From Candidatus Latescibacterota bacterium (GTDB taxonomy: Bacteria; Latescibacterota; UBA2968), in contig OZ242320.1 of NCBI GenBank assembly GCA_965208125.1, positions 4,448,001 through 4,512,000 on the forward strand: a stretch of DNA of 64,000 nt. The letters are read 5' to 3'. Below are positions 27,744 to 51,687 of the stretch, in pieces. Made by a program: the position numbers and the translations under genes. Below the pieces are notes generated by a model. The model worked only from the letters and a program-made list of their open reading frames with translations. It was not told where the DNA came from and did not search any database. How positions within the stretch are numbered: position 1 is the stretch's first letter; the number at the start of each line of letters is the position of its first letter.

Positions 27744-27882
27744 TGGACACTCCTTTGTAGTTTCAACCAGCATCTAATTTACAAATTATGACACGCTCTT
27801 GCAAAATCAATTATATTTATAGGGTGGAAATTAGAAATAGGGAACAGAAAGAGAATGATTAACGTCATAATAAACTGATGTG

Positions 27883-27975: not shown

Positions 27976-30132
27976 ATGAAAATACGTATTCTTTTTGCTT
28001 TGTTGTTCTGTATCTCTCTTTTGGGAAGTATTTCCGAGGCGTCTGATTGGACGCACTGGCGCGGTCCCATGCAAACTGGTGCTTCGCCGGAGACAGGACT
28101 CGTTTCCTCCTGGTCTCTTGATGGAGAAAATTTGATCTGGCGTCGCGAGTTTATCGGCAGATCTACACCGATTATTGTAAATGGTCGGGTCTATGTTATC
28201 GGGCGAACCGGTGAAGACATAACCGAGCAGGAGCACATCGCGTGTTTTGATGCGGAAACAGGCGATCTCTTATGGGAAAAAAAGTTCAATGTCTGGCATT
28301 CGACCATAACCTTCAATCGTCTGGGATGGGCAAGCCTGGGGGCCGATGGCGAGACCGGTAATATTTACGCCCATCTCGTCAGTGGATTATTGATCTGTTT
28401 TGATACCGATGGCTATGTCCAATGGCAGCGGTCTCTAACCGAAGAATTTAACCGATTCTCCGGTTATGGCGGGCGGTTGCACACGCCTGTTGTAGATGGC
28501 GATCTGGTCATCATCAGCATGGGCAATCGCGGATGGGCCGGCGCACCGCCTTCTCATCGGTATGTTGCCTTTAATAAACATACGGGTGAGACCGCTTGGA
28601 TGGCTCGTCCAGGTGGTGGTGGACAGGTTGATTTAACCGTTTACTCAACGCCTGTTGTCACGACAATTGACGGGCAGCGCGTGTTGGTTGCCGGCAATGG
28701 CAATGGCGGCATTTTTGCCTTTAAAGTCGCAACGGGCGAAAAAGTATGGGGTTTTCCATTCAGTAAGCGCGGCATCAACACCTCGCCTGTCGTGGCTGAC
28801 AATCGCGTTTATGTCGCACACAGCGAAGAAAATGTCGATAATACCTCTCTTGGTCGCGTTGCGTGTTTGGATGCGCGCACGGGCAAAGAAATCTGGCGAC
28901 AAGACGGTATGACCGCGGGCTATGCTTCGCCAGCAGTCCACGCGGGGCGCGTCTATGTTATAGACAATTCGGCCAATGTGCATTGTCTGGACGCCAAAAC
29001 GGGTAAGCAATATTGGGAGCAAAATATCGGCACTGTGGGCAAGGGATCGCCGACCTGGGCCGATGGCAAACTCTATGTTACTGAAGTCAATGGCGGCTTC
29101 CAGATTCTTAAAGCGGGAAATATGAGCGCGGAAGTGCTCGACAAAAAGAAAATCGCAATGCCCGAGGGCGGGCATGCCGAGATCTACGGATCAGTCGCTG
29201 TTGCATATCGCCGCATCTATTTTGCGACGGAAGCCGGGTTGTTTTGCCTGGGCGATAAAAACGCGCGCTTTGAAGTCACATCTTCTCCTCATACAAAGCA
29301 CGAAAGCGCGCCTTCGGGTGCCGAACCCGCATCTATTCTTTCTATTCCAGCTGAGGCGACCATACAACAGGGCGAGGTATTGCCCCTGCGGGCAGAGGCT
29401 TATGATGAGAAGGGATGCTTGATCGGCAATGCCGACGCCGAGTGGTCGTTGAATGGTCTGGATGGAGAAATAAAGAATAATCAGTTTATACCATCCCGGG
29501 CGGGACAGGGCGGCTGGATCACGGTCAAACTCGATGAATTAACCCGCCAGACATGGGTGCGCGTGGTGCCCGATGTGCCCTGGACAGAGGATTTTGAAAA
29601 TATCGAAGTCGGCACAAATCCATTGCACTGGGTGTGGGGAGGCAGGGGTTTTGTGGTGGAGGAAAAAGATGGCAATAAGGTGCTGGCAAAACCTCCGGCT
29701 GCACGCGGCTTAGATCGCTCAAATCTCTATGTGGCGCCGTACAAGCTCAGTGGCTATACTATTCAGGCCGATCTTATGGGCACGCAAAACAAGCGGCGGC
29801 GTCCCGATATGGGGCTTATAGCGCATCGTTATATCCTCGACCTTCAGGGCATTCATCAACGCCTTGAAGTGCGATCGTGGTCGTCGGATTTGCGCATGGC
29901 AAAACGCATTGATTTTAGCTGGGACATGGGGGTGTGGTACACCATGAAAATGAGAGTTGATATCGAAGGTGGTAAAGCCATTGTTCGGGGCAAAGTTTGG
30001 GAAAAAGGCAATCCCGAACCCGATGCGTGGAGTATCGAAGTAGAGGATCCCCTGCCTATAGAAGAGGGCAGCCCCGCGCTTTATGGCTATTCACCTGCCA
30101 CGATTTACTACGATAATGTGAAACTTTGGTAA
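27976..30132 (+). CDS. Secreted PQQ-binding-like beta-propeller protein with extra C-terminal beta-sandwich domain(s)
   Basis: Signal peptide, DWTHWRGP..TG, repeated D.KTG...W blade motifs and a Trp-rich jelly-roll-like C-terminus. Confidence 0.85.
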   Translation: MKIRILFALLFCISLLGSISEASDWTHWRGPMQTGASPETGLVSSWSLDGENLIWRREFIGRSTPIIVNGRVYVIGRTGEDITEQEHIACFDAETGDLLWEKKFNVWHSTITFNRLGWASLGADGETGNIYAHLVSGLLICFDTDGYVQWQRSLTEEFNRFSGYGGRLHTPVVDGDLVIISMGNRGWAGAPPSHRYVAFNKHTGETAWMARPGGGGQVDLTVYSTPVVTTIDGQRVLVAGNGNGGIFAFKVATGEKVWGFPFSKRGINTSPVVADNRVYVAHSEENVDNTSLGRVACLDARTGKEIWRQDGMTAGYASPAVHAGRVYVIDNSANVHCLDAKTGKQYWEQNIGTVGKGSPTWADGKLYVTEVNGGFQILKAGNMSAEVLDKKKIAMPEGGHAEIYGSVAVAYRRIYFATEAGLFCLGDKNARFEVTSSPHTKHESAPSGAEPASILSIPAEATIQQGEVLPLRAEAYDEKGCLIGNADAEWSLNGLDGEIKNNQFIPSRAGQGGWITVKLDELTRQTWVRVVPDVPWTEDFENIEVGTNPLHWVWGGRGFVVEEKDGNKVLAKPPAARGLDRSNLYVAPYKLSGYTIQADLMGTQNKRRRPDMGLIAHRYILDLQGIHQRLEVRSWSSDLRMAKRIDFSWDMGVWYTMKMRVDIEGGKAIVRGKVWEKGNPEPDAWSIEVEDPLPIEEGSPALYGYSPATIYYDNVKLW

Positions 30133-30164
30133 TCTTCATAAACCCTTACAGGTAAAGGAATAAA

Positions 30165-31592
30165 ATGAAATTGAAACGACTTTTTAGCGGATGTGTTATC
30201 GTTGGTTTGATCGTATCGACTGGTATTGCCGAAGAGGTTATGTGGGGATTTACTCCAGATCGCAACCTCGTGTCAGACGCAAAAAATTTGCCGATGAACT
30301 GGAATGTAGAAACGGGTGAAAATATCGCTTGGAAAGCAGATCTCGGTTCGCAGTCCTACGCCGGTCCCATCAGGATTGGTGGCAAAATATTTATGGGGAC
30401 AAATAATCAGATTGAGCGCAATCCCAAAATTACGGGTGACAAGGGCGTAATCATGGCTTTTCAGGAATCCGATGGAAAATTTCTCTGGCAAGCAGCGCAT
30501 CCCAAGCTGCCCGCGGGGCGCGTCAATGACTGGCCACAACAGGGCATTTGCTCCACGCCTTATATTAGCGGAGATCGGATGTATTATATCTCGAATCAAT
30601 GTCGCGTAGTGTGCGCGGATACAGAGGGTTTTTTGGATGGGGAAAATGACGGTCCATATACCGGAGAAGAGGATACGAGCGATATCGGTGTGGATATTAT
30701 CTGGGAATACGACATGATGGAAGAACTGGATGTGTTCCCTCACAATCTGGCGACCTGTTCGCCCGTGGGAGCGGGCAATCTCCTGTTTGTCATCACCGCT
30801 AATGGTGTTGACGAGGGTCACATTGCCATCCCTTCGCCTCTGTCGCCCAGCTTTATTGCGGTCGATCTCAATACGGGGGAACTGGTTTGGGAAAAAGCCT
30901 ATCCCGGTGAAAGTATCTTGCACGGGCAGTGGTCCAATCCCGCTTATGGTATTATCAATGGCAAGCCGCAAGTGATCTGCCCTGGGGGCGATGGCTGGGT
31001 TTATTCAGTAGAACCCGCGACCGGCGACCTGATCTGGAAATTTGACTGCAATCCAAAAGACTCTGTATGGGAGTTGGGCGGGCGCGGTACGCGCAATGCG
31101 ATTATCTCCACTCCAGTTATTTACGATAACAAGGTTTTTATCGGCGTTGGGCAAGACCCGGAGCACGGCGAGGGCATTGGACACCTGTGGGCTATTGACG
31201 CGACGGGTACAGGGGATGTGACGGGAAGCCATGCAGTGTGGCATTTTGGCAATGAAAATTATAACCGTACCATTTCAACGGTGGGCATCAGCGATGGCCT
31301 GCTCTATGCAGCAGATCTGAGTGGCTTTGTCTATTGTCTCGATCTGAAAACCGGTACACAGCACTGGAAATACGATACATTTGCCGCGATATGGGGATCG
31401 CCTTTTGTGGCTGACGGGAAGGTGTACATTGGCGATGAAGATGGCGATGTGGCGATTTTGAAAGCCGGAACACAATTTGAATTGATCAACGAAATCAATA
31501 TGGGTAGCGCCGTATATACCACGCCTATTGCAAAAGATGGCATGCTCTACATTGGCACGCGCAATACGCTGTATGCGATTAAGGGCGAGTAG
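30165..31592 (+). CDS. Secreted PQQ-binding-like beta-propeller protein
   Basis: Signal peptide, MWGFTPDRN, blade motifs (DLNTGELVW, DLKTGTQHW) and acidic/His-rich loop inserts. Confidence 0.85.
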   Translation: MKLKRLFSGCVIVGLIVSTGIAEEVMWGFTPDRNLVSDAKNLPMNWNVETGENIAWKADLGSQSYAGPIRIGGKIFMGTNNQIERNPKITGDKGVIMAFQESDGKFLWQAAHPKLPAGRVNDWPQQGICSTPYISGDRMYYISNQCRVVCADTEGFLDGENDGPYTGEEDTSDIGVDIIWEYDMMEELDVFPHNLATCSPVGAGNLLFVITANGVDEGHIAIPSPLSPSFIAVDLNTGELVWEKAYPGESILHGQWSNPAYGIINGKPQVICPGGDGWVYSVEPATGDLIWKFDCNPKDSVWELGGRGTRNAIISTPVIYDNKVFIGVGQDPEHGEGIGHLWAIDATGTGDVTGSHAVWHFGNENYNRTISTVGISDGLLYAADLSGFVYCLDLKTGTQHWKYDTFAAIWGSPFVADGKVYIGDEDGDVAILKAGTQFELINEINMGSAVYTTPIAKDGMLYIGTRNTLYAIKGE

Positions 31593-31605
31593 AAGGGGTC
31601 ACAAT

Positions 31606-32694
31606 ATGGAAGTTCTGGCAACACCAGCGGTCGATAAGGTCAAAGAAGCGCGCGATATCCTTGACGCCCAGGTGCGAGATATGGTCGCCTGGCATTTTAA
31701 TCCCAATACGGGATGTCCGTTCTGGCTGGAATTTGCGGCGGAACTGGATTTTGATCCGCGGCGGGAGATCGGCGGGTACAGCGATTTGAAATATCTCGGG
31801 CATTTCCAGGACGAATGGCTGCGCGGTGGCCCCGTGCGGCGATGGATCCCGAGGGGTAGCGAGGGGCAGCGGACTTATGTCTTTGAGACGGGTGGCTCAA
31901 CAGGGGTTCCCAAATATCGGATCAGCCAAAACGATTTTCAGATCGACTACGAAATGTTTAGCGAGCACCTTTCTGAAGAAACATTTCCGAAGGGGGCGGA
32001 CTGGTTGATGCTGGGACCAACAGGTCCCCGGCGATTGCGCTTGGCTGTCGAATATCTCTGTCAGATTCGCGGTGGGATTTGCTTTCTCGTGGATCTCGAT
32101 CCCCGATGGGTTAACAAGCTGATCAAGCGCGGCGCACTCCAGGAATTGGAACTCTACAAAGCCCATGTCATCGATCAGGCGCTCACTATTTTGCGCGCGA
32201 ATGATAATGTGAAGTGCATGTTTACGACCCCCAAACTTCTCGAAGAATTGTGCGAAAAAATTTCTCTGCAAAAAGCCGGGATCAGCGGCATTTTTTGCGG
32301 GGGAACAGAGATGAACGCACAGTTTAATAGATTTGCGAGAGAAGAGCTTATCCCTGGCATCGATTTTGTTCCTACCTACGGCAATACCCTGATGGGACTG
32401 GCTTATTCCAAGCCGCTGGAACCCGGAGACAATTACGCGATTACGTATTACCCGCCCGTGCCCCGCGCGTTTATCGAACTGGTGAATCCAAATAATCCCG
32501 ATGAAGAGGTCGGTTACGACGAAGTCGGGCGCGTGATGCTGACGACACTTACGAAAGAATTTTTTATGCCCCGCTTTCTCGAACGCGATGAGGCCGAACG
32601 CGCCAAACCAATTGAAGCCTATCCCTGGGATGGCGTGAGAAATCTGGGTTTGTTCTCCGAGTTGCAGGAATCAGTCGTCGTTGGGGTGTATTAA
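31606..32694 (+). CDS. EhpF/EsmB1-like atypical ANL-superfamily adenylating enzyme
   Basis: WHFNPNTGCPFW, ETGGSTGVPK, PTGP, DLDPRWV, TTP, GGTE, YGNT, ERD and C-terminal GVY match my recollection of Pantoea EhpF motifs along the whole length. Confidence 0.8.
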   Translation: MEVLATPAVDKVKEARDILDAQVRDMVAWHFNPNTGCPFWLEFAAELDFDPRREIGGYSDLKYLGHFQDEWLRGGPVRRWIPRGSEGQRTYVFETGGSTGVPKYRISQNDFQIDYEMFSEHLSEETFPKGADWLMLGPTGPRRLRLAVEYLCQIRGGICFLVDLDPRWVNKLIKRGALQELELYKAHVIDQALTILRANDNVKCMFTTPKLLEELCEKISLQKAGISGIFCGGTEMNAQFNRFAREELIPGIDFVPTYGNTLMGLAYSKPLEPGDNYAITYYPPVPRAFIELVNPNNPDEEVGYDEVGRVMLTTLTKEFFMPRFLERDEAERAKPIEAYPWDGVRNLGLFSELQESVVVGVY

Positions 32695-32753
32695 ATCGAA
32701 CGGATCTTTTATATCCCATACTGTGGTTTCAGTCTTTCAAAGAGGCGAAATAT

Positions 32754-34178
32754 ATGATTCACTTACCTATTTTACGTGCGGGGGAACCGTACACGAGTTT
32801 GAATGTTCAGGAAGTGTCGCATATTCAAACTGGCGAGCCGCTCGTTCAGGTCAGTCAGGCAAATCGGGGGCTGGTTGCGAAAGACTTAAATGCGGCGGTG
32901 GCGAACAAACGGGTGCTCGACAGGCTGAGTGTATCCGAACTCGCAGGTATAACCCGCGAAGCCGCACGCTTATTTGCAAAAGCCGATTTGCCCATTGGCG
33001 ATCATATACAGACGCCCGATGACTATGTCAAACAGGTGTCTGGCACAACGGGTATGCCCGAAGCGCTCTGCCGCGCGAATATGGAAAAAATTCAGCTCGT
33101 GTGTACGGAGATCGAAGCTATTTTAGGGGGTCTCACGCGTGGGTTAGATCTCGCTGTGCTCGATGAAGGCTGGCACAATCAGGATGGTCGCTCTCTCAGC
33201 TATATTTGCCAGGCCGATGCCCTCGGAGCTATATTGCCGAGCAATTCACCGGGTGTACACGCCCTGTGGGTTCCATCCATACCGCTCAAGGTGCCCCTCG
33301 TTCTCAAACCTGGACGCGAAGAGCCATGGACGCCTTTCCGAATTGCACAGGCATTTATCGAAGCGGGGTGCCCGCCAGAAGCGTTTGGGTTTTATCCTAC
33401 GGATCACGGAGGTGCCACTGAAATTTTGCTTCGCTGCGGTCGCTCCATGCTATTTGGGGGCGGGGCGACGGTTGCGCCCTGGCTGAGCGATCCCCGCGTG
33501 GAAATTCACGGGCCTGGACAGAGTAAGGTCATTATTGGCGAAGATGTGATAGACCGCTGGGAAGACTATCTCGACATCGCGGTAGCCTCGATTGCTGCAA
33601 ATGGCGGTCGCTCTTGCATCAATGCGTCAGGCGTGTGGGTTCCCGCGTATGGTCGAGAAATTGCCGAAGCACTCGCAGAGCGATTGGCAAAAATTGTCGG
33701 GAGACCTCTGGATGATCCAGAAGCGCAGATCGCGGCATTTACCAATCCCGCATTCGCCGATCAAATTTCGACAACGATAGACATCCATCTGAAAACCCCA
33801 GGGGCTGAAGATCTGACCGAGAAATTGCGCGGTGATCGGCTGGTCGAGATCGATGGCTTGAAATTCTTAAATCCCACGGTTGTCTGGTGCGATGATTTTG
33901 AACATCCTCTTGCAAATACCGAATATTTGTTCCCATACGCGAGCGTGGTCGAAGTTCCGCAATCGGAAATTCTGGATAAGATCGGACCGAGCCTCGTGGT
34001 GACAGCAATAACAGAGGACCGTGCATTTATCGATAAATTGCTCAATTCTCCCCATGTAGAAAGACTCAATGTGGGGGCGATTCCCACGCCTCAGATTTCA
34101 TGGGATCAACCACACGAGGGCAATTTGTTTGAACATCTTTACCGACAACGCGCGCTGCAATGGGCGAAACAGGCTTAG
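32754..34178 (+). CDS. Aldehyde dehydrogenase-fold acyl reductase (EhpG/EsmB2/LuxC-like)
   Basis: LPSNSPG, LKPG, catalytic Cys in NGGRSCINAS. HGPG replaces the canonical ELGG. EYLFP. Confidence 0.8.
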   Translation: MIHLPILRAGEPYTSLNVQEVSHIQTGEPLVQVSQANRGLVAKDLNAAVANKRVLDRLSVSELAGITREAARLFAKADLPIGDHIQTPDDYVKQVSGTTGMPEALCRANMEKIQLVCTEIEAILGGLTRGLDLAVLDEGWHNQDGRSLSYICQADALGAILPSNSPGVHALWVPSIPLKVPLVLKPGREEPWTPFRIAQAFIEAGCPPEAFGFYPTDHGGATEILLRCGRSMLFGGGATVAPWLSDPRVEIHGPGQSKVIIGEDVIDRWEDYLDIAVASIAANGGRSCINASGVWVPAYGREIAEALAERLAKIVGRPLDDPEAQIAAFTNPAFADQISTTIDIHLKTPGAEDLTEKLRGDRLVEIDGLKFLNPTVVWCDDFEHPLANTEYLFPYASVVEVPQSEILDKIGPSLVVTAITEDRAFIDKLLNSPHVERLNVGAIPTPQISWDQPHEGNLFEHLYRQRALQWAKQA

Positions 34179-34181
34179 GAG

Positions 34182-35297
34182 ATGATAGCATTTGATTTTT
34201 GTCCCACTACGCGCGTGGTGTTTGGGGAGGGCACACTCGCGCAATTGGGGAAATTATCGAAAGAATTGGGCGGAAGCCGCATTCTTTTTGTGACTGATCC
34301 AGGGATTGTAAGTGCCGGGCTTGCAGACCGTGCGATTGCGCCGCTTCAAAGCGCTTCCCTGGATTTTTTTGTGTTTGATGGGGTGGGCGAAAATCCCACG
34401 ACCGCGCATGTAGAGGCCGGTGTCGCGTTTGCAAAGGCACATGGAAATATTGATCTGATTGTCGGGATGGGAGGAGGTAGTGCGATGGATTGCGCCAAGG
34501 GGATCAATTTTATCCTGACAAACGGCGGACAGATGGCCGATTATATGGGTATGGGCCAGGCGGCGAATCCCATGTTGCCCTCGATTGGGGTTCCAACAAC
34601 TGCGGGTACGGGGAGCGAAGCGCAGTCCTACGCGCTTATTTCCGATGCCAAAACGCATGTCAAGATGGCCTGTGGCGATCTTAAAGCGCGATTTCGAAGT
34701 GTTATTCTCGATCCGCCACTGATCGAAAGTGTGCCGAAAAATGTCGCAGCAGCAGCGGGAATAGACGCCATTGCACACGCTATTGAGAGTTATGTTTGCA
34801 CGCGCCGCAATGCCATTTCTATGATGTTCGCGCAAAAGGCGTGGCAATTGCTTTCATCGAGTTTTGAATGCGTGTTGAAGGATGCTTCCGATAGCGATGC
34901 GAGGAGCAAAATGCTTTTGGGTGCGCACTTTGCCGGTGCGGCTATTGAGAATGCCATGTTGGGTGCAGCTCATGCGTGTGCCAATCCATTGACCGCGCAT
35001 TTTGGTATTGTACATGGCATCGCTGTGGCACTTTTGCTGCCCGCTGTCGTCCAATTTAATGGCGAAACCCAAAGTACGCGCTATCGCGGACTCGGAGTTG
35101 ATGTTGATGAACTCGTCGAGAAGGTCGTTTTTTTGAAGGAATGTGCGAATCTGCCTTCTCGATTGCGCGACCTCGGCGTAGCGCGTGACAGCCTCCCAAT
35201 GCTGGCAAAAGATGCAACTGAACAATGGACGGGTACTTTTAATCCGAGACCCGTAGGCGAAAAAGATTTTCTCGCCCTTTACGAATCTGTGTATTGA
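34182..35297 (+). CDS. Iron-containing alcohol dehydrogenase
   Basis: GGGSAMD, PTTAGTGSE, metal ligands DAIAH, AH, VHG. Confidence 0.93.
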   Translation: MIAFDFCPTTRVVFGEGTLAQLGKLSKELGGSRILFVTDPGIVSAGLADRAIAPLQSASLDFFVFDGVGENPTTAHVEAGVAFAKAHGNIDLIVGMGGGSAMDCAKGINFILTNGGQMADYMGMGQAANPMLPSIGVPTTAGTGSEAQSYALISDAKTHVKMACGDLKARFRSVILDPPLIESVPKNVAAAAGIDAIAHAIESYVCTRRNAISMMFAQKAWQLLSSSFECVLKDASDSDARSKMLLGAHFAGAAIENAMLGAAHACANPLTAHFGIVHGIAVALLLPAVVQFNGETQSTRYRGLGVDVDELVEKVVFLKECANLPSRLRDLGVARDSLPMLAKDATEQWTGTFNPRPVGEKDFLALYESVY

Positions 35298-35303
35298 TCT
35301 GCA

Positions 35304-37747: not shown

Positions 37748-37771
37748 GTGATCAATAACTATGGAGGATTT

Positions 37772-39013: not shown

Positions 39014-39062
39014 TAGTCGGAAAAGGCCGGGGGACTGATATCTGACAATTGGAGAAGTCGCA

Positions 39063-41183: not shown

Positions 41184-41186
41184 ACT

Positions 41187-42458: not shown

Positions 42459-42472
42459 TAGAAAGCGTTTCT

Positions 42473-43732
42473 ATGATTGCAGATCAATACGATGTCATTG
42501 TCATTGGTGGAGGACCTGCGGGGAGTACGACAGCCGCGCTTGTCGCTGAATATGGGCACCGCGTACTGTTGCTGGAAAGGGAGGAGTTTCCCAGGTTTCA
42601 GATTGGCGAGTCCCTGATGCCGGGTACTTACTGGTCATTCAAACGGCTGGGGTTGCTGGATAAGCTAAAAAAAAGTGCGTTTGTCAAAAAGTACAGTGTT
42701 CAGTTTTTCAGCGGTTCGGGAAAAGGCTCTGCGCCATTTTATTTTCACTTACACGATCCCCACGAGAGTTCTATCACGTATCAGGTGTTGCGCAGCGAAT
42801 TTGATCTTATGATGATGGACAATGCCCGCGAGAAAGGCACTGTGGTCGAGCAGGGGGCGAGTGTGCATCAGGTGCATTTTAGTGGAGAGCGCGCAACGGG
42901 TGTTCAGGTGAGATACCGCGATGGACAGATCAGAGATGTGTCTGCCAGTGTTATTGTAGATGCGACGGGGCGAAGCGCGCTTATTTCGAGAAGGCTAAAG
43001 ACCAAGACGATTGAGCCAGAGCTAAAAAAGGCGTCTATTTTCACCCACTACAAAGGCGCGTTCCGAGACGAGGGTATTGACGAAGGCGCAACGCTGATTT
43101 TACATACGCAAGATAAGGATTCCTGGTTCTGGTACATCCCGCTGGCAGATGATGTGGTCAGCGTGGGTGTTGTTGGGGGATTGGATTATCTGTTGCAAAA
43201 CCGCAAGAGAACCCCTCAGGAAATTTTTGAAGAAGAGTTAGCAAAGTGTGTCCGCATGCAAGAACGGCTCGCAGGGGCAGATCAGTTATTTCCGATGAAA
43301 GTCACGCAGGACTTTTCATACCGATCCAATACTGTCGCGGGTGAGGGATGGGTGCTGGTAGGCGATGCTTTTGGTTTTATAGATCCCGTTTATTCCTCGG
43401 GTGTGTTTCTCGCGCTCAAATCGGGCGAGATGGCCGCCGATGCAATCCACGAGGCCATTGAAAAACGCGATTTCTCTGCCGAACAACTCGGCAAATGGGG
43501 GCCAGAATTTCTTCCGGGCATGGAGGCGATTCGCAAATTGGTCTATGCTTTTTATACCAAAGATTTCAGTTTTGCCAGATTTTTAAAAGCGCATCCAGAA
43601 TGTATAGATGGCATTATCAATATCTTAAAAGGCAATGTCTATCGCGAGGATGTCACCCCTATTTTTGAGCCTATGGGGCAAATGTGCGATCTGCCCGAAA
43701 CTGTGGATCACTACACTGAGGTATCTGCTTAA
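42473..43732 (+). CDS. Flavin-dependent halogenase-like FAD oxidoreductase
   Basis: GGGPAG, FPRFQIGES, Lys in FVKKYS, WFWYIP (WxWxIP), GDAFGFIDPVYSSGV. Confidence 0.8.
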   Translation: MIADQYDVIVIGGGPAGSTTAALVAEYGHRVLLLEREEFPRFQIGESLMPGTYWSFKRLGLLDKLKKSAFVKKYSVQFFSGSGKGSAPFYFHLHDPHESSITYQVLRSEFDLMMMDNAREKGTVVEQGASVHQVHFSGERATGVQVRYRDGQIRDVSASVIVDATGRSALISRRLKTKTIEPELKKASIFTHYKGAFRDEGIDEGATLILHTQDKDSWFWYIPLADDVVSVGVVGGLDYLLQNRKRTPQEIFEEELAKCVRMQERLAGADQLFPMKVTQDFSYRSNTVAGEGWVLVGDAFGFIDPVYSSGVFLALKSGEMAADAIHEAIEKRDFSAEQLGKWGPEFLPGMEAIRKLVYAFYTKDFSFARFLKAHPECIDGIINILKGNVYREDVTPIFEPMGQMCDLPETVDHYTEVSA

Positions 43733-43747
43733 ACGGGATTGCTGTAT

Positions 43748-45034
43748 ATGCGAATTGCTTATATTGCCGCGGGTGCAGCGGGCATGTATTGTGGCAGTTG
43801 TATTCACGACAATGCGCTGGCCTCCGCTCTTCAGCGCAGGGGGATAGACTTCGCGCTTATTCCGACGTACACGCCCCTGCGTACCGATGAACCGGGCGCG
43901 AGTATCGATCGGGTTTTTTATGGCGGCATCAATGTTTATCTCCAGCAGAAAATGGGTATTTTTCGGCACACGCCCTCTTTTATCGATAAGTTATTGAATA
44001 GCCGAATACTGCTCAATAGTCTCGCCCGTTTCAGTGGTTCAACGCGTGCTGAAGACCTCGGCGCGCTCACGGTATCGGTTTTAGAAGGGGAAGAAGGCGC
44101 ACAAAAAAAAGAACTCGCAAAGCTGGTGCACTGGTTAAAAGAGGATTTTCAGCCCGATCTCGTGCAATTGACCAATTCGATGTTTTTGGGCATGGCCAGA
44201 GAAATGAAACGGGAACTCGGCGTTCCCGTTTTGTGTTCTCTGCAAGGTGAGGATATCTTTCTCGAAGGATTGATAGAACCGTACAACGCGCAGGCGCGGC
44301 AGTGCTTACAGGATCGGGCAAAAGATGTCGATGGATTTGTAGCTACGTGTGACTATTATGCCGATTTTATGGCTGATTATCTCGATGTGCCGCGCAATAG
44401 GATTCACGTCGCTCCTTTGGGCATCAAATTAGACGGGCATGGGGAAAGCGATGTAAAGCCGGATCCATTGCCTTTTGCGATAGGTTATCTCGCCCGAATA
44501 TGTCCCGAGAAAGGGTTGCATGCGCTGGTAGATGCGTTTCATCAACTGGCTGAGCAAGTCGGTAAGGAGAATGTAAGACTTAGTGTTGCCGGTTATCTCG
44601 GACAAAGAGACGCGCCGTATTTTCAGCACGTATGCGAACAAATCGCATCCCGGGGACTTTCCGATGTTTTTGATTATCGCGGGGAAGTCAATCGAGAAGA
44701 AAAAATTGCATTCCTGAATAGTATCCATATCTTATCCGTGCCCACGCCTTATAAAGAGCCTAAAGGACTATCGCTGCTCGAAGCTATGGCCAATGGCGTT
44801 CCCGTTGTTCAGCCCCGGCACGGTATTTTTCCTGAATGGATTGAAAAAACGGGTGGGGGAATTCTGGTAGAGCCAGATTCTTCAGAGGCTCTGGCGGCAG
44901 GGTTAATGCGGATGATGAATGACGCAGATGGGCGAGAGGCGATGGGGCAAAAAGGCAAAGAAGCAGTACATCAAAATTTTAGCGACGACGATATGGCGGA
45001 AGCAACACTGGCGGTATATCGTCAGTATGTGTGA
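43748..45034 (+). CDS. Glycosyltransferase family 4
   Basis: GT-B C-terminal motifs RICPEKG and EPKGLSLLEAMANGVP. Unusual N-terminal YCGSC. Confidence 0.88.
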   Translation: MRIAYIAAGAAGMYCGSCIHDNALASALQRRGIDFALIPTYTPLRTDEPGASIDRVFYGGINVYLQQKMGIFRHTPSFIDKLLNSRILLNSLARFSGSTRAEDLGALTVSVLEGEEGAQKKELAKLVHWLKEDFQPDLVQLTNSMFLGMAREMKRELGVPVLCSLQGEDIFLEGLIEPYNAQARQCLQDRAKDVDGFVATCDYYADFMADYLDVPRNRIHVAPLGIKLDGHGESDVKPDPLPFAIGYLARICPEKGLHALVDAFHQLAEQVGKENVRLSVAGYLGQRDAPYFQHVCEQIASRGLSDVFDYRGEVNREEKIAFLNSIHILSVPTPYKEPKGLSLLEAMANGVPVVQPRHGIFPEWIEKTGGGILVEPDSSEALAAGLMRMMNDADGREAMGQKGKEAVHQNFSDDDMAEATLAVYRQYV

Positions 45035-45059
45035 TTAAAAACTTAACACGGGAGGGCAA

Positions 45060-45551
45060 ATGCCGACTTCTTCTTCTGGACTTACGTGGTTGATTTTTGC
45101 GTTGATGACTGTGGGCGCGTGGGGTTTGTACGGGATTTTTCTGCACACCGGACAGATCGCTATGGGCGATCCCGAAAATGGACGCTACAAAGCTTTTCTC
45201 TTTGTGGGTATTGCCTATCTTTTGACAGCTGTTATTGGATCCCTCATTGTGCTGGCGATCAACGGATCGGACTGGTCATTTCCGACAAAGGGGCTGACCT
45301 GGTCGCTGCTGGCTGGTATTGTGGGGGCCATCGGTGCATTTGGCGTGCTTCTCGCCTTTGGGGCGAAGGGGACACCGCCCGTGGTTATGTCTATTGTTTT
45401 TGCCGGCGCGCCTATTGTCAATGCCGTCGTATCCCTCATCTTGCATCCGCCAGCAGGTGGGTGGGGTGGGTTGAACTGGCAATTTGTGCTGGGTATTATA
45501 CTGGCTGCGATGGGAGGTTGTCTGGTGACATTATTTAAACCTTCGTCTTGA
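45060..45551 (+). CDS. Five-TM DMT/EamA-like membrane protein
   Basis: About five hydrophobic helices with WGLYG and APIVN motifs. Confidence 0.65.
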   Translation: MPTSSSGLTWLIFALMTVGAWGLYGIFLHTGQIAMGDPENGRYKAFLFVGIAYLLTAVIGSLIVLAINGSDWSFPTKGLTWSLLAGIVGAIGAFGVLLAFGAKGTPPVVMSIVFAGAPIVNAVVSLILHPPAGGWGGLNWQFVLGIILAAMGGCLVTLFKPSS

Positions 45552-46003
45552 TGACGGATAGCACTATGCACAGTGAATTTCACACTACTCGCAGGGTTGC
45601 ATTTTCCGATACGGACATGGCCGGGATTGTACACTTTTCCCGGTTTTTTGTCTTTATGGAAGCTGCCGAGCATGCTTTTTTGCGCGCGTTGGGTACGAGT
45701 GTTTCAACAGAATGGGATGGGAATAAAATTGGATGGCCGCGATTGGAAGCGACATGTACATATCTCAGTCCAGCCGTATTTGAAGATGTGCTGGATATTC
45801 ATCTGAAGGTGATACGCAAAGGCACAAAATCCCTGACTTATCGGTTTGATTTTTTTCGCGGAGAGACAGCTATTGCTAGCGGCGAATTGAGTGCGGTATG
45901 TTGTATATGCAATCCCGGCGAAAAAATCAGGTCCATACCGATTCCAGATTTTATTGCGGATCAGATCGCGGATGAAGCAGATGGCGCAGATAGACGCGGA
46001 TGA
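45551..46003 (+). CDS. Acyl-CoA thioesterase (YbgC / 4-hydroxybenzoyl-CoA hotdog family)
   Basis: RVAFSDTDMAGIVHFSRFF.FME motif. Translationally coupled to the upstream gene (TGATG). Confidence 0.9.
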   Translation: MTDSTMHSEFHTTRRVAFSDTDMAGIVHFSRFFVFMEAAEHAFLRALGTSVSTEWDGNKIGWPRLEATCTYLSPAVFEDVLDIHLKVIRKGTKSLTYRFDFFRGETAIASGELSAVCCICNPGEKIRSIPIPDFIADQIADEADGADRRG

Positions 46004-46014
46004 AGATCGAGAAA

Positions 46015-46042
46015 GTAGGGGCGCGGCCCCTGTGCCCGCCCG
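46015..46042 (+). repeat. GTAG-type REP-like palindrome
   Basis: GTAG followed by the imperfect hairpin GGGCGcGGC-CCCTGT-GCCCGCCC, intergenic. Confidence 0.6.
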
Positions 46043-46061
46043 AATATTTAAGAGGTCGCAA

Positions 46062-46715
46062 ATGGCACTAAAAGTTGAAAACCTTTCCAAACGCTTTGGC
46101 GATGTAAATGTTCTGCAGGGTATATCTTTTGAAATGACAATGGGGCAGTCGCTGAGTGTTATGGGGCCTTCGGGGTCGGGGAAGAGCACCTTGTTGCATG
46201 TGCTTGGTACGCTGGATCGGCCATCTGAAGGGAGCCTCGAAATTGAAGGCCAGGATCCCTTTGCACTGTCGGAAATCGACCTTGCGCGGTTTAGAAATCA
46301 GGGGATTGGATTTGTGTTTCAAGAGCACCATCTTTTGCCGCAATACTCGGTTTTGGAAAATGTTTTGATTCCGACGCTGGCATTTCGAAATGGCGATGCT
46401 CGAGATCGCGCCCGAGAGATTATTGATCGCGTGGGCTTGTCGCATCGCATTGATCACCGGCCCGCCGAATTATCTGGTGGCGAGCGACAGCGCACAGCTG
46501 TTGCGCGTGCGCTCATCAATTCTCCGGCATTGCTCTTGTGCGACGAGCCAACGGGTAGCCTGGATGGGGCGCGGGCAGAGGAAATAGCCGATTTGCTATT
46601 TGAATTGCACAAGCGAGAAAATAATATCCTGATCTGCGCGACGCACAGCTCGGCACTGGCTCGTCGCTTTGAGCGGCGGTTTGACCTGCGGGAGGGGACG
46701 TGCGTCGAAGTCTGA
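46062..46715 (+). CDS. ABC transporter ATP-binding protein (LolD/MacB type)
   Basis: GPSGSGKST, GFVFQ, LSGGERQR, CDEPTG. ATG at 46062 follows GAGG. Confidence 0.93.
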   Translation: MALKVENLSKRFGDVNVLQGISFEMTMGQSLSVMGPSGSGKSTLLHVLGTLDRPSEGSLEIEGQDPFALSEIDLARFRNQGIGFVFQEHHLLPQYSVLENVLIPTLAFRNGDARDRAREIIDRVGLSHRIDHRPAELSGGERQRTAVARALINSPALLLCDEPTGSLDGARAEEIADLLFELHKRENNILICATHSSALARRFERRFDLREGTCVEV

Positions 46716-49700
46716 TTTATTTCTGGCGAATTAATCTGGCTGTTGTGTTCGGCGTGGCAGTGGCGACAGCTGTTCTGACGGGTGCTTTGATCGTGGGCGA
46801 TTCCGTACGCGGCAGCTTGCGGGATTTGTCACTGAGTCGCCTGGGCAAAATTGATCACGCTCTGGTATCCGAGCGATTTTTCCGCGCAAGTCTGGAGCGC
46901 GACCTCGAGCGTGAACTCGACACTCAGGATGTTGTATCGGCCATTAGCTTGGGCGGAACGGCTGTTCACGTGGAATCGAATACGCGGGCTTCTCGCGTTC
47001 AAATTCAGGGTATTGATAATCGCTTTGCAAATCTGTTTGATCAAATATTGCCCGAGTTGACGCTCGAGGGAATATTTCCATCGGTTGTCGTCAACGAATC
47101 CCTCCAAAAAGAACTCAATGCACAGATTGGCGATGCCATTCTGCTGTCTTTTGAACAATCAGATGATATTCACCGCGAATCGCTATTTGGACGTGCCGAT
47201 GGTGCGGTTCAAACAATTCGATTGACACTCGCAGGCGTGCTTCCCGATAGGGGAATGGGGCGCTTTGGCTTTTTCGCTCGCCAGAGCGTTCCCCTCAATG
47301 CATATCTGTCGCTGCCGGTTTTACAAAAAGCGTTGGGGCAAAGAGGCCGCGTGAATACATTGCTGGTGTCGGGTGATCCTGATGCCGACGTTCGGGAAGC
47401 TCTTTCCCGCGTTGCAACGCCGGATGATCTTGGCATTGTCATCCGCCATGAAGCAGATTATTTCGCTGTCGAGAGCACGCAGTTTATTCTCAAATCCCAT
47501 ATTGTAGAGACTATTCAAAAAGTATCTGCTGAATTAAACGCGCCCCACATGTCTATTCTCACCTATCTGGCGAATACCACACAGGTGGGGGAGAGAGAAC
47601 TGCCCTATTCCACAATTTCTGCGATGGATGTTGAGAATCTGGGGACTTTTCAGCTTGTAGATGGATCACTACAACTCGGGGAAGACGATATTTTGCTGAA
47701 TATCTGGGCGGCTGAGGATTTGAACGCACGAGTTGGCGATGAAGTGAAAGTTGCCTATTACGAAGTTGCGCCAGGAGAAGAACTCCTGACCCGTTGGGAG
47801 ACGTTCCAACTCAAGGGTATTGTGGCAATGGCGGGATTGGGCGCAGATGAAAAGTTGTCCCCCGATTATCCGGGCCTGGGTGATGCAAATAATATGGCAG
47901 ATTGGGAAGCGCCCTTTCCCATAGACCTGAATAGTGTTCGTCCCGAGGATGAAGATTATTGGGATACCTATCGCGACGCGCCAAAAGCCTTTGTGTCTGC
48001 CGCGACTGGGCAGCGATTGTGGCAAAGTCGATTTGGCGTATTAACCGCCATACGCGTTGGGGCTATTGCGGGAGAAGATATCGAAACAACAGCGAAGCGA
48101 TTTGAGGATCGCTTGCTAAAAAACATTGCGCCCGAATCGGCTGGTCTGATATTTCAGCCCGTCAAACAACAGGGCCTGGCTGCTTCTGCGGGAGCGACGG
48201 ACTTTAGCGGGCTGTTTATTGCATTCAGCCAATTTCTGATTATCTCTGCGGCGCTTCTGGTCGGATTATTATTTCGCCTGAGTGTGGAGCAGCGAGGCAG
48301 AGAAGTTGGCCTGCGGATGGTGTCGGGATATACGGGAAAAAAAATTCGCCAACTCTTTAGTTGCGAGGGCCTTGTACTGGCCTGTGTGGGCGGTATTTTG
48401 GGGCTGGCAGGCGGTGTTTTCTACGCCTATCTGATTATGGCGGGATTGCGTACTTACTGGGTGGGCGCGGTTGGCACATCTGATCTCGTGCTTCATATCA
48501 ATGCATCGAGTCTGTTGTTGGGCTATGCCATTTCACTCATCGTGATTCTGCTGGCAATCTGGCTCACGCTTCGCCGTTTGGGTCATATTTCTGTTCGCGC
48601 ATTATTATCGGGTATTACGGAAGTGGTGCGCGCAAAGTCGCGCACTAAATGGTATGCTCTGGGCAGCCTCGTTCTTGCCGCGCTCAGTCTGGGGGGGGCT
48701 GTGGTGGTGGATCCATCGGCGGGTACGGTTTTGTTTTTTATTAGTGGCGCGTTGTGGATGGTTTCGGGGTTGTGCTTTCTCTCGCTCTGGTTTAGACGCG
48801 GGCATCGCGCCATAAGAGAGGGTATTATTGGGATGGGGGTACAAAATAGCAAGCGGCAGCCCGGGCGGAGTTTGCTGTGTGCCTCACTCATCGGTTGTGC
48901 GTGTTTTGTCATTGTTGCAGTAGGCGCGAACAGGCGAACTGATCTGACTCAAAATATCGCGCAGGATAAAGCCTCTGGCACGGGGGGTTTTGCCCTCATC
49001 GCCGAAGTTGATGTGCCGATTTATTGGGATTTCAATTCAAAAGACGGGCAATTTGAACTCGGATTCTCGCAAGCAGATGCAGAACTTTTGGATCAAGCGC
49101 GGTTTATTCCACTACGCGTTTTGCCCGGTGAAGATGCAAGTTGTCTCAATCTTTACAAGCCCGAAAGCCCGCGCGTTCTGGGCGTTCCCGAAGCTCTGCG
49201 TCAGCGAGGTGGTTTTACATTTCAGCAAACGAGTACCGAAGTGGAAAATCCCTGGACGCTATTATCCGAGGATCTGGGCGCAGATGTGGTCCCGGCAATT
49301 GGGGATTATAATTCGGCTATGTGGATCTTGCACAAGCAATTGGGCGATGATATTGTGTTGCAGAATGAAATAGGGGAGACCGTCAGACTGAGATTGGTGG
49401 GCTTGCTGAAGACGAGTATTTTTCAAAGTGAATTGCTGATTTCCGAAGACAATTTTTTGCGGCACTTTCCCGACCGGAGTGGGTATGAGGCTTTTCTCAT
49501 TGAAACGCAACAACCCGTTCAGCTTACTGCGCTTGTAGAGAGCAGATTAAAAGACATCGGGTTAGACGCCGTATCCACAACGCAAAAACTCGCGCATTTT
49601 CAGGAGGTCGAAAATACGTATCTCACCACCTTTCAAACACTGGGGGGATTGGGATTGCTGTTGGGTACGCTTGGATTGGGAATTGTTCTATTGAGAAATG

Positions 49701-49999
49701 TGATTGAAAGACGCGGTGAATTGGCCGTTCTTCGCGCCTTTGGATTTCGCCGCGCTGTGCTGTCGCGCATGTTGCTCGCGGAGAACGGTTTTTTAATGCT
49801 CGTGGGTCTGGCTATCGGTAGCGTCTCTGCGCTTATTGCAGTAGCGCCCCATGTCATGAGCTATGGTGCGTTAATTCCCTGGGGATCGCTGGCTCTCACG
49901 CTTGTCATCATATACGGTGCGGGCCTCATCGCAAGCGCGATAGCTGTTTTCTTTGCCTTGCGAGCACCTTTATTGCCCGCGTTGAAACAGGAGATATGA
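46700..49999 (+). CDS. ABC transporter permease, duplicated FtsX/MacB-like
   Basis: 1099 aa with two FtsX-like modules (EQRGREVGLRMVSG; ERRGELAVLRAFG) and two large periplasmic domains. Confidence 0.9.
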   Translation: MRRSLIYFWRINLAVVFGVAVATAVLTGALIVGDSVRGSLRDLSLSRLGKIDHALVSERFFRASLERDLERELDTQDVVSAISLGGTAVHVESNTRASRVQIQGIDNRFANLFDQILPELTLEGIFPSVVVNESLQKELNAQIGDAILLSFEQSDDIHRESLFGRADGAVQTIRLTLAGVLPDRGMGRFGFFARQSVPLNAYLSLPVLQKALGQRGRVNTLLVSGDPDADVREALSRVATPDDLGIVIRHEADYFAVESTQFILKSHIVETIQKVSAELNAPHMSILTYLANTTQVGERELPYSTISAMDVENLGTFQLVDGSLQLGEDDILLNIWAAEDLNARVGDEVKVAYYEVAPGEELLTRWETFQLKGIVAMAGLGADEKLSPDYPGLGDANNMADWEAPFPIDLNSVRPEDEDYWDTYRDAPKAFVSAATGQRLWQSRFGVLTAIRVGAIAGEDIETTAKRFEDRLLKNIAPESAGLIFQPVKQQGLAASAGATDFSGLFIAFSQFLIISAALLVGLLFRLSVEQRGREVGLRMVSGYTGKKIRQLFSCEGLVLACVGGILGLAGGVFYAYLIMAGLRTYWVGAVGTSDLVLHINASSLLLGYAISLIVILLAIWLTLRRLGHISVRALLSGITEVVRAKSRTKWYALGSLVLAALSLGGAVVVDPSAGTVLFFISGALWMVSGLCFLSLWFRRGHRAIREGIIGMGVQNSKRQPGRSLLCASLIGCACFVIVAVGANRRTDLTQNIAQDKASGTGGFALIAEVDVPIYWDFNSKDGQFELGFSQADAELLDQARFIPLRVLPGEDASCLNLYKPESPRVLGVPEALRQRGGFTFQQTSTEVENPWTLLSEDLGADVVPAIGDYNSAMWILHKQLGDDIVLQNEIGETVRLRLVGLLKTSIFQSELLISEDNFLRHFPDRSGYEAFLIETQQPVQLTALVESRLKDIGLDAVSTTQKLAHFQEVENTYLTTFQTLGGLGLLLGTLGLGIVLLRNVIERRGELAVLRAFGFRRAVLSRMLLAENGFLMLVGLAIGSVSALIAVAPHVMSYGALIPWGSLALTLVIIYGAGLIASAIAVFFALRAPLLPALKQEI

Positions 50000-51642: not shown

Positions 51643-51687
51643 GAATCTCTGAATTGCAAAATATCACATCACAGAAAGGAGTTTGCG

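Follow-up and report, generated by a model that had tools for sequence, protein, structure and literature searches.

The DNA stretch analysed here, called the window throughout, comprises 64,000 nucleotides (nt) of a Candidatus Latescibacterota bacterium (contig OZ242320.1, positions 4,448,001 to 4,512,000), whose genome is a single contig of 5.75 Mb and 96% complete. We studied an operon at positions 27976-49999 of the window, in which genes for predicted tailoring enzymes and transport proteins stand beside four genes for secreted beta-propellers (P1 to P4). The region is tiled by 16 open reading frames (ORFs), which according to the ORF list of the window are all co-directional on the + strand. 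The domain content of the 16 products was obtained by Pfam and NCBIfam searches (E-values in brackets; aa, amino acids):

27976-30132 (+), g01 (P1): secreted protein of 718 aa with an N-terminal PQQ_2/BamB-like propeller (Pfam PQQ_2 1.6e-36)
30165-31592 (+), g02 (P2): secreted protein of 475 aa, an eight-bladed BamB-like propeller (PQQ_2 1.9e-23)
31606-32694 (+), g03: EhpF/GriC-like adenylating subunit of a two-protein carboxylate reductase, 362 aa from the ATG
32754-34178 (+), g04: LuxC/EhpG-like reductase subunit with the aldehyde dehydrogenase (ALDH) fold (Aldedh 1.6e-14)
34182-35297 (+), g05: iron-containing alcohol dehydrogenase (Fe-ADH 5.8e-48, ADH_Fe_C 6.2e-36)
35304-36404 (+), g06 (P3): secreted BamB/ACSF4-like propeller of 366 aa (PQQ_2 1.4e-44)
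36401-37747 (+), g07: HemN-like (class C type) radical S-adenosylmethionine (SAM) enzyme, the cluster marker (Radical_SAM 6.4e-20)
37748-39013 (+), g08 (P4): secreted propeller of 421 aa (PQQ_2 2.1e-35)
39063-41183 (+), g09: TonB-dependent receptor of the siderophore-receptor subfamily (TIGR01783, 248.5 bits, cut-off 223.5)
41187-42458 (+), g10: PaaK-like aryl/acyl-coenzyme A ligase, an accessory member (AMP-binding_C_2 4.7e-18)
42473-43732 (+), g11: flavin-dependent halogenase of the phenol/pyrrole type (Trp_halogenase/FAD_binding_3)
43739-45034 (+), g12: glycosyltransferase of family 4 (GT4; Glycos_transf_1 2.6e-29)
45060-45551 (+), g13: half-size EamA/DMT membrane protein of 163 aa with five hydrophobic segments
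45548-46003 (+), g14: 4HBT/YbgC-type thioesterase (4HBT 1.4e-10; TIGR00051, 59.8 bits, cut-off 68.7)
46062-46715 (+), g15: LolD/MacB-type ATPase of an ATP-binding cassette (ABC) system (ABC_tran 4.4e-34, 118.5 bits)
46700-49999 (+), g16: duplicated FtsX permease of 1099 aa, type VII ABC, YbbP/ADOP-like

With gene starts judged likely from the translations, the successive gaps amount to 32, 13, 59, 3, 6, -4 and 0-24 nt from g01 to g08 and to 49, 3, 14, 6-15, 25, -4, 58 (or an overlap) and -16 nt from g08 to g16. The g13/g14 junction is -1 instead of -4 nt if g14 begins at the ATG one codon later, and the start of g15 is uncertain, as other ATG codons lie at 45972 and 45981. Overlaps were found at four junctions, g06/g07 (4 nt), g13/g14, g15/g16 (16 nt) and possibly g14/g15. 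The original prediction, made from the letters alone, had described 16 same-strand genes with gaps of about 60 bp or less and several overlaps. This was borne out, the largest gap being 59 nt, and every item of the gene content that it listed was matched by Pfam/NCBIfam, PDB or Atlas comparison. Likewise, no polyketide synthase, non-ribosomal peptide synthetase, acyl carrier protein, phz or pqq family was detected by Pfam and NCBIfam among the 16 products, just as had been claimed. The gaps in the ORF list are too small for any extra gene within the operon, and there is no space between its genes for an additional ORF encoding a precursor peptide. Scans for promoters (26 sites versus 22.6±3.8 in shuffled sequence) and terminators (25 sites versus 23.5±5.0) disclosed no excess; since these counts match shuffled sequence, they are uninformative on the operon boundaries.

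The conservation of the cluster was followed with the radical SAM gene g07 as marker. Orthologues with at least 66% identity occur in 37 of 41 relatives, and 98 of 168 genomes of the phylum contain the marker at E<=1e-80, in four families of one class (f1 27/30, f2 20/22, f3 1/3 and f4 49/76, as against 0/36 in the other ten families). For synteny, ten genomes from other genera or families of the class were searched with all window proteins over 40 kb surrounding the marker. Eight of the ten keep the window order of the EhpF-like, ALDH-like, Fe-ADH, P3 and radical SAM genes and, further on, of the PaaK-like and halogenase genes; the same eight continue in this order with the GT4, EamA, thioesterase, ABC ATPase and FtsX permease genes. 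P1 and P2 are present in seven of the ten, all four propellers in four of the eight syntenic genomes, while two genomes (G101, G167) possess only part of the cluster at the marker position. Every member shows high identity across the class genomes, the EhpF-like protein g03, for instance, 71-87%. Beyond the phylum, g03 gave at least 8000 matches at E<=0.001, the best 120 of which are all 72-90% identical; among the matches listed, KSB1, Calditrichia, Poribacteria and Acidobacteria appear by source record with 72-78% identity. For the radical SAM enzyme, 7980 or more relatives reach E<=1e-100, with Poribacteria (65% identity) and KSB1 (63%) among the sources named. A scan of genome contigs with one protein yielded almost exclusively close relatives, 20 of the 21 loci bearing Latescibacterota or Latescibacteria in their titles; one 61%-identical locus was labelled Deferribacteres.

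Metagenomes were scanned with an alignment of the marker, and the best 80 of more than 568 matches were analysed, which represent the nearer relatives and not the whole family. The gene counts depend on tblastn thresholds, and their denominators are the loci with enough flank. P3 lies 5' of the marker in 43/56 loci, and homologues of the other genes were detected as follows: Fe-ADH 25/38, ALDH-fold protein 11/26, EhpF-like protein 10/23, P2 7/21, P1 7/20, P4 (3' of the radical SAM gene) 17/52, halogenase 18/27, GT4 12/25, receptor 14/33, thioesterase 10/25 and ATPase 10/24. Six complete-looking loci, in which the receptor gene is directly followed by the halogenase gene, lack the PaaK-like ligase, which is therefore an accessory member. 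There are also compact variants (L108, L114) comprising radical SAM, lyase (see below), halogenase, thioesterase, EamA and ligase genes with no detectable propeller within 10 kb. In addition, contigs from RNA libraries of sponge and coral (four studies) cover the operon stretch at 90-95% identity. They stem from relatives and not from this strain, and DNA carry-over is possible because one sponge contig, which shows about 91% identity along the operon, is 31.8 kb long. In this contig, 3944 additional letters stand between the EhpF-like gene and the ALDH-like gene (window 32693-32731), an insertion in the relative. Thus, the 16-gene operon is real and strongly conserved, and synteny across lineages, named beforehand as a test of the original prediction, held in eight of ten distant class genomes and in many metagenome loci.

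EhpF/EhpG of Pantoea agglomerans (D-alanylgriseoluteic acid) and GriC/GriD of Streptomyces griseus (grixazone) are two-protein aromatic carboxylate reductases. The adenylating subunit g03 aligned with EhpF (PDB 3l2k/3hgu) over 340 residues (query residues 10-349, phmmer E 3.3e-43), and the adjoining g04 is, like EhpG, an ALDH-fold protein that has the Cys and lacks the general-base Glu. Cys288 of g04 aligns with the catalytic Cys of ALDH enzymes, and His252 occupies the position of the general-base Glu; both residues are at least 95% conserved in 19 sequences. As the Cys is kept and the Glu is replaced by His, g04 fits the reduction of an acyl-enzyme, not the oxidation of an aldehyde. These similarities support the assignment of g03/g04 as a putative EhpF/EhpG-type carboxylate reductase that would convert an acid into the aldehyde. 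Unlike EhpF/EhpG and GriC/GriD, the pair is not surrounded by a phenazine or 3-amino-4-hydroxybenzoate pathway, is coupled to exported propellers and displays a far higher cross-phylum conservation (72-78% identity). The alcohol dehydrogenase g05 stayed under every NCBIfam equivalog cut-off.

The halogenase g11 has as solved neighbours exclusively flavin halogenases (8zop, 1.7e-67; CndH 3e1t, 1.6e-53; 5buk, 1.4e-52; CmlS; PltA). It contains the motifs GxGxxG (as GGGPAG) and WxWxIP (as WFWYIP), and in the alignment with 3e1t one of its Lys residues falls on the CndH Lys at chain position 76 (own count), which we take to be the catalytic Lys. Lys73, Trp218 and Trp220 of g11 are at least 95% conserved (27 sequences). 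With its signatures intact, g11 is a predicted halogenase. The ligase g10 reached 222-251 bits with the PaaK models, under their cut-offs. For the glycosyltransferase g12, the solved neighbours are small-molecule GT4 enzymes (MshA 7qsg, 1.5e-11; sucrose-phosphate synthase; BshA; a pterin glucosyltransferase); its N-terminal CxxC is kept, and Cys18, Cys21, Asp24 and Asn25 are conserved. The CX3CX2C cysteines of the radical SAM enzyme g07 (Cys69, Cys73, Cys76) are at least 95% conserved in 83 sequences and invariant in a 12-sequence alignment. Its closest solved relatives in the PDB are HemN (1olt, 7e-32) and the class C methyltransferase NocN (9p2u, 2e-25), while the equivalog scores stayed below the cut-offs for HemN (187.9, cut-off 324.95), ChuW (186.7, cut-off 400) and HemW (171.4, cut-off 205.4). 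A function in heme degradation or synthesis was rejected on the grounds of these three scores and because no heme gene lies nearby. Together, the EhpF match, the halogenase signatures and the GT4 relatives fit the proposed tailoring of an aromatic acid by reduction, halogenation and glycosylation.

Evidence on the probable substrate came from the relatives. A divergent branch, in which the marker is 51-55% identical, has a conserved ORF of about 190-230 aa 3' of the radical SAM gene; it occurs in 21 of the 81 metagenome and genome-contig loci. By sequence, this ORF of roughly 200 aa belongs to no Pfam family (3/3) and to no NCBIfam family, and a search with its profile against PDB sequences yielded a chance match only (E 0.81). 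L102 and L119 were left out of the ORF alignment, as their references contain a stop codon. An AlphaFold2 (AF2) model based on 18 sequences (predicted local distance difference test, pLDDT, 87.7; predicted template modelling score, pTM, 0.82) was compared by Foldseek and matched the DUF98 protein AF1396 (E 2.4e-8, template modelling score, TM, 0.77) and four entries of the Escherichia coli chorismate lyase UbiC (E 1e-5 to 2e-4). It also matched UTRA domains, which have the same fold. By hhalign, the ORF was aligned with the Rv2949c-like lyase of the genome studied here over 164 columns (probability 55.9%, E 1.1e-4), and some of its Atlas neighbours carry the annotation chorismate lyase. The model hence predicts a stand-alone protein of the UbiC/Rv2949c fold, i.e., a chorismate-lyase-fold protein.

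In two genomes (G077, G162), the cluster itself contains a PF01947 lyase gene scoring above the cut-off, placed between the genes for the TonB receptor and the PaaK-like ligase, and in G105 such a gene lies beside a P4-type propeller. Altogether, 35 of the 168 genomes of the phylum contain PF01947, and 34 of these 35 carry the radical SAM marker (34/98 marker-positive versus 1/70 marker-negative genomes, whereby related genomes are not independent samples). The Rv2949c-like lyase of our genome resides at C1:3539018-3539476, about 0.9 Mb from the operon; a UbiC-type lyase (PF04345) was not detected in this genome. None of the 21 loci that have the lyase-fold ORF is among the 22 that have a receptor or symporter; this is one split between two branches and not the outcome of many independent events. 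Because relatives have chorismate lyases inside the cluster, the substrate is most likely 4-hydroxybenzoate (4-HBA). These genes support the earlier claim that the cluster acts on an aromatic acid, and the link between the cluster family and chorismate lyase is new here.

A precedent is BaaA/BaaB of Planctomycetales strain 10988, a chorismate lyase and a brominase for which the pertinent passages of the source propose 3,5-dibromo-p-anisic acid as product; according to these passages, the proposal rests on genome mining, with no knockout (10.1101/723874). The same passages describe Bmp6/Bmp5 of Pseudoalteromonas as a locus of chorismate lyase and flavin halogenase (10.1101/723874). As in these two systems, a lyase-fold gene and a flavin halogenase gene occur together in relatives of the operon, for which halogenation of 4-HBA would be expected. 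Unlike the operon, the BaaA/BaaB and Bmp6/Bmp5 loci are, as far as described there, devoid of a carboxylate reductase, radical SAM enzyme, GT4, ABC machine and propellers; the window, in turn, has no lyase in cis. The in-cluster lyases and the BaaA/BaaB precedent make 4-HBA the best candidate substrate, and the genes for lyase, ligase, halogenase and 4HBT thioesterase read together as a coherent module. Similar logic, with a carrier-bound substrate, is known from ambigol biosynthesis.

The envelope genes of the cluster concern transport and periplasmic handling. The receptor g09, which like the four propellers starts with a signal-peptide-like segment, is optional, being present at the locus of five of ten class genomes and in 14/33 metagenome loci. 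In five of the ten class genomes a sodium:solute symporter gene (SSF, PF00474) lies between the halogenase and GT4 genes; it was also found in 11 of the 81 loci, and the SSF homologue of our genome (52%) is about 1 Mb away from the operon. For g13 there is no Pfam or NCBIfam family. Its Atlas neighbours at 0.97 are clusters called 'putative EamA domain-containing protein'; it is 66-84% identical in eight of ten class genomes and retains several polar residues inside membrane segments. In the permease g16, FtsX was recognized in two stretches (3.9e-19, 69.3 bits) along with MacB_PCD (1.1e-07, 32.8 bits), and hydrophobic segments bracket stretches of about 470 and 235 residues, corresponding to two large periplasmic domains. 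The ATPase g15 resembles the LolD and DevA families (LolD TIGR02211, 242.5 bits, cut-off 307.75). With the FtsX domain, the MacB periplasmic core and the LolD/MacB-type ATPase, g15/g16 show the type VII ABC fold, as do MacAB-TolC, LolCDE, DevBCA and YbbAP. Unlike in these systems, the permease is duplicated within a chain of 1099 aa, neither an adaptor nor a LolA or TolC partner is encoded (Pfam detected no adaptor family among the 16 products), and every NCBIfam equivalog cut-off was missed; lolCE gave 34.5 bits (cut-off 362) and MacB 21.5 bits (cut-off 966), which do not identify g15/g16 as LolCDE or MacB. MacB/FtsX-type (type VII) ABC systems relay an ATP-driven motion to the periplasm and are not known to form a substrate channel in the inner membrane. 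The half-size EamA protein g13 is therefore the likelier inner-membrane exporter, and the ABC machine would act in the periplasm. The export to the periplasm that the original prediction had proposed for the cluster would accordingly fall to g13.

The signal peptides of the four propellers, read by eye from the translations, are ordinary and lack a lipobox. P2 is the best conserved of the four (69-78% identity in seven of ten class genomes) and the one that was modelled by AF2 (pLDDT 86.1, pTM 0.87). Foldseek placed BamB on top (E 2e-22 to 1e-18; TM 0.73-0.81, normalised to BamB), while the pyrroloquinoline quinone (PQQ) dehydrogenase PedH followed at rank 38; the P2 family is very large, with 32,100 matching representatives. 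P1 has orthologues of 50-59% identity in seven of the ten genomes; its C-terminal 289 aa correspond to no Pfam family at E<=0.01, and 103 of 718 positions are at least 95% conserved (14 sequences). P3 scored 199.8 bits with Beta-prop_ACSF4 (cut-off 133). It is the propeller most tightly tied to the operon, its 3' end overlapping the start of the radical SAM gene by 4 nt in a translationally coupled arrangement. At least 95% conservation was seen at 26 of its 366 positions (43 sequences), mostly structural Gly and Trp, in comparison to 119 of 448 in the radical SAM enzyme; P1 and P2 retain more polar residues, in smaller and less diverse sequence sets. Long open frames in some genomes had suggested a fusion of P3 with the radical SAM enzyme, which was discarded since the two genes differ in frame (G102). 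P4 has orthologues of at least 40% identity at the locus in seven of ten class genomes.

None of the four propellers was classified as a quinoprotein (36-76 bits with the PQQ alcohol dehydrogenase model TIGR03075, cut-off 480) or as BamB (62.5-182.8 bits with the equivalog TIGR03300, cut-off 285.2). BamB itself is an eight-bladed lipoprotein of outer-membrane protein assembly; it was the best structural match of P2, and unlike BamB the operon's proteins come as four paralogous types, have no lipobox and, in P1, contain extra C-terminal domains. By sequence and fold comparison, they are thus predicted to be fold relatives of BamB, not orthologues. A contact prediction for P1 and P2 gave a score of 0.38 (runs 0.38, 0.00 and 0.54; best of three controls 0.00), the runs sharing at least 12% of contacts with a partner pLDDT of at least 86. 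The contact mark was reached by 58/80 solved complexes and 2/110 mismatched pairs, and at scores of 0.60 or less by just 7/80 solved complexes plus both mismatched pairs; the prediction lends weak support to a P1-P2 contact. Two extra PQQ_2 propellers are encoded downstream:

50006-51541 (-): propeller with three N-terminal hydrophobic segments, not a simple signal peptide (PQQ_2 4.8e-31)
51559-53001 (+): propeller (PQQ_2 1.8e-21)

Their homologues adjoin the cluster in G021 (51% identity) and G025 (62% identity), and their membership in the operon is uncertain. Beside P4, a glucose/sorbosone dehydrogenase gene (PF07995, 2.4e-80) was noticed in G077 (L020:889-2088), and a homologous ORF about 2 kb 3' of P4 in G101; enzymes of this family use PQQ. 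G077 also has aldo/keto reductases and GFO_IDH_MocA oxidoreductases alongside.

On this basis, it is about an even call that the operon serves the biosynthesis and envelope handling of a small halogenated phenolic compound derived from 4-HBA. The acid would be formed from chorismate by chorismate lyase (0.9 Mb away here, in-cluster in relatives) or be taken up. The PaaK-like ligase g10 would activate it, the flavin halogenase g11 would halogenate next to the hydroxyl group, and the 4HBT thioesterase g14 would free the halogenated acid. The HemN-like enzyme g07 probably adds a carbon substituent. The pair g03/g04 may then convert the carboxylate into the aldehyde, and the Fe-ADH g05 may reduce the latter to the benzyl alcohol. 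The GT4 g12 may attach a sugar. The EamA protein g13 would move the product over the inner membrane, after which it might be bound, moved or processed in the periplasm by the four secreted BamB-like propellers and the type VII ABC machine. Gene content, conservation, catalytic signatures and the chorismate-lyase link are shown by homology; step order, methylation, sugar acceptor and exporter, along with all propeller roles, are what we infer.

Several observations weigh against this pathway. The cluster of the genome studied here is without a lyase gene (the g09-g10 gap is 3 nt), and just 34 of 98 marker-positive genomes contain a PF01947 lyase, so another acid or uptake is possible. The SSF symporter of five of ten class genomes and the TonB receptor fit import equally with recapture. 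The PaaK-like ligase is missing in many otherwise complete loci, so that the sequence of ligase, halogenase and thioesterase is not universal, and the solved relatives of the halogenase include enzymes with carrier-bound substrates, while the operon encodes no carrier protein. The reaction given for the radical SAM enzyme is conjectural, the pathway offers no explanation for the four propellers, and the cross-phylum conservation (EhpF-like protein 72-78%) is unusually high for a secondary-metabolite pathway. Moreover, products and enzyme activities of the cluster family are predictions from the genes. We found no paper assigning a product or propeller function to the cluster, nor did searches on EhpF/EhpG and GriC/GriD turn up anything on it.

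A counterpart in print is the orphan cluster pseudoclass Halo_AMP from sponge microbiomes, defined in the relevant passages of an August 2026 preprint by a flavin halogenase and an AMP-binding enzyme (10.64898/2026.08.03.742642). By this definition the operon belongs to Halo_AMP, g11 being the halogenase and g10 and g03 the AMP-binding enzymes. The passages list as accessories a PQQ-like domain 'at high frequency', glycosyltransferase, thioesterase, radical SAM enzyme and TonB receptor, assign 9% of the Halo_AMP cluster families to Latescibacterota, and name no product, substrate or role of the PQQ-like domain, nor do they resolve the architecture reported here (10.64898/2026.08.03.742642).

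Three other functions of the operon were weighed against the synthesis of a halogenated 4-HBA derivative. A host-derived or environmental aromatic or halogenated compound might be imported via the TonB receptor and SSF symporter and then be modified or detoxified, with the propellers binding or processing it in the periplasm. Brominated phenolics are common in sponge and coral habitats, where the RNA libraries disclosed relatives with 90-95% identity, and the receptor (here and in five of ten class genomes) and the symporter between halogenase and GT4 (five of ten class genomes, 11/81 loci) would suit this function. It is nevertheless improbable, because the halogenase signatures are intact, g04 lacks the Glu required for aldehyde oxidation, the operon encodes a GT4 and an ABC system of the exporter type, the in-cluster chorismate-lyase genes point to an internal supply, and Pfam and NCBIfam detected no ring-cleavage or dehalogenase family among the 16 products. 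That the operon makes, exports and recaptures a metal-binding compound is suggested by the receptor g09, which passes the siderophore-receptor cut-off; furthermore, the MacB-type ABC system PvdRT-OpmQ exports pyoverdine. We attach little probability to such a metallophore, as the receptor is optional (14/33 metagenome loci, 5/10 class genomes), the 21 lyase-fold loci and the 22 receptor/symporter loci are disjoint, and Pfam and NCBIfam disclosed no enzyme for catechol, hydroxamate or carboxylate assembly among the 16 products. Finally, the operon could modify the cell surface with a glycolipid, whereby the GT4 would act on a membrane-bound alcohol, EamA would flip the product, a Lol/Dev-like ABC system would extract it in the direction of the outer membrane and the propellers would carry it. 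The genes for GT4, EamA, thioesterase, ABC ATPase and double-FtsX permease are conserved as a block, the ATPase resembles LolD and DevA, and the Halo_AMP passages mention matches to the exporter cassette of the bartoloside glycolipids (10.64898/2026.08.03.742642). The operon, however, lacks genes for building fatty acids, polyketides or prenyl groups as well as a LolA-like carrier and a membrane-fusion adaptor, and its reductase pair is nearest to enzymes of aromatic-acid pathways, all of which makes a glycolipid doubtful.

In the original prediction, the product was seen as the ligand or redox cofactor that 'PQQ-like' propellers at large are missing, made by a cofactor operon with client proteins. 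In favour of this idea, the cluster includes orthologous propellers as integral members, P3 is coupled translationally to the radical SAM gene and lies 5' of the marker in 43/56 loci, and our genome gave no match to PqqC (TIGR02111), a weak argument, as 14 control genomes were also silent. Moreover, the median number of PQQ_2 candidates was 40.5 in marker-positive genomes (n=98) and 14 in marker-negative genomes of the same class (n=34), with 11.5 in other classes (n=36, all marker-negative); these per-genome counts are loose first-look candidates and not validated copy numbers, and as at most 15 candidates were scored per genome, the scored matches saturate. Within genera, the negative versus positive genomes differed in the same direction (genus g9, 7 vs 27-32; g3, 8 vs 20-22; g17, 16 vs 45-48; g31, 12-25 vs 26-49), yet the excess of about 12-30 candidates equals roughly the cluster's own copies, and 22 of 70 marker-negative genomes still have at least 20 candidates. 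Of the expected covariation, it was seen that positives hold more. The propellers are also not 'hugely expanded' in our genome, which has 15 PQQ_2 matches in 12 proteins, six of them (nine matches) at this locus. The P2 model is far nearer to BamB (E 2e-22) than to PedH (rank 38), the four propellers score 36-76 bits with the PQQ alcohol dehydrogenase model (cut-off 480), P3 conserves 26/366 positions that are nearly all Gly or Trp, and the compact variants L108 and L114 manage without a propeller within 10 kb. PQQ (pqqABCDE) and mycofactocin (mftABCDEF) operons comprise a precursor peptide and a SPASM-type radical SAM enzyme, mycofactocin also a glycosyltransferase of family 2. The operon resembles them in having a radical SAM enzyme and a glycosyltransferase beside possible client proteins, and differs in that there is no precursor peptide and no space for one, the radical SAM enzyme is HemN-like and not a SPASM-type maturase, the glycosyltransferase is a GT4 and the putative clients are secreted BamB-like scaffolds; by precursor peptide and radical SAM type, it is not a cofactor operon of their kind. 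A general cofactor of propellers, against which the P2 model, the quinoprotein scores and the propeller-free variants all speak, is unlikely. The link between operon and propellers is genuine, and there is a slim chance that the halogenated 4-HBA-derived molecule is a dedicated ligand or prosthetic group of the operon's own four BamB-like propellers. If so, a new kind of periplasmic holo-protein system would exist in Latescibacterota and, going by the source records of the proteins, in Poribacteria and KSB1, and a part of the 'PQQ_2' propeller family would obtain its first function.

Among the orphan operons of several poorly studied phyla, this one ranks with the most widely conserved. The 'PQQ_2' propeller family is very large and has almost no assigned function; by linking secreted BamB-like members of it to a defined enzyme set, the operon offers a first practical handle on some of their ligands. 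With 4-HBA as the likely start, the chemistry becomes testable in a standard host. Relatives occur in sponge and coral samples, where halogenated phenolics are of ecological and pharmacological interest. In the compact variant L114, the ligase gene is followed (14376-20015) by genes for an esterase, a GCS2-type glutamate-cysteine ligase-like protein, an M29 peptidase-like protein and a cytochrome b561-domain protein, a hint that in some branches the phenolic acid is coupled to an amine or thiol.

The flanks of the operon are unrelated to it. On the 5' side they comprise a SAICAR (phosphoribosylaminoimidazole-succinocarboxamide) synthetase gene, a DUF6785 membrane protein gene and a divergent dioxygenase gene, on the 3' side the two additional PQQ_2 propellers, a tripartite ATP-independent periplasmic (TRAP) transporter and polysaccharide-utilisation genes. 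The following features of the window were recorded:

17158-20160 (+): UvrD-type helicase of 1000 aa with an RNase_T exonuclease domain inserted between the helicase halves
24870-26858 (-): membrane protein of 662 aa with about 13 hydrophobic segments, DUF6785 (1.2e-93) and DUF6784
27009-27773 (-): PhyH-family dioxygenase, divergent, 202 nt 5' of the operon
53014-63592: TRAP transporter, heparinase II/III-like protein with DUF4962, enolase-superfamily enzyme, sulfatase and L-rhamnose isomerase

The PhyH dioxygenase matched the model TIGR01762 of the non-heme iron 'chlorinating enzyme' family weakly (49.5 bits, cut-off 226). In G101, G102 and G098, PhyH homologues (25-26% identity) are found no more than 20 kb from the cluster, and by eye a second PhyH-like ORF was seen beside the distant SSF homologue of the genome. 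The genes at 53014-63592 look like a region for the utilisation of a sulfated polysaccharide.

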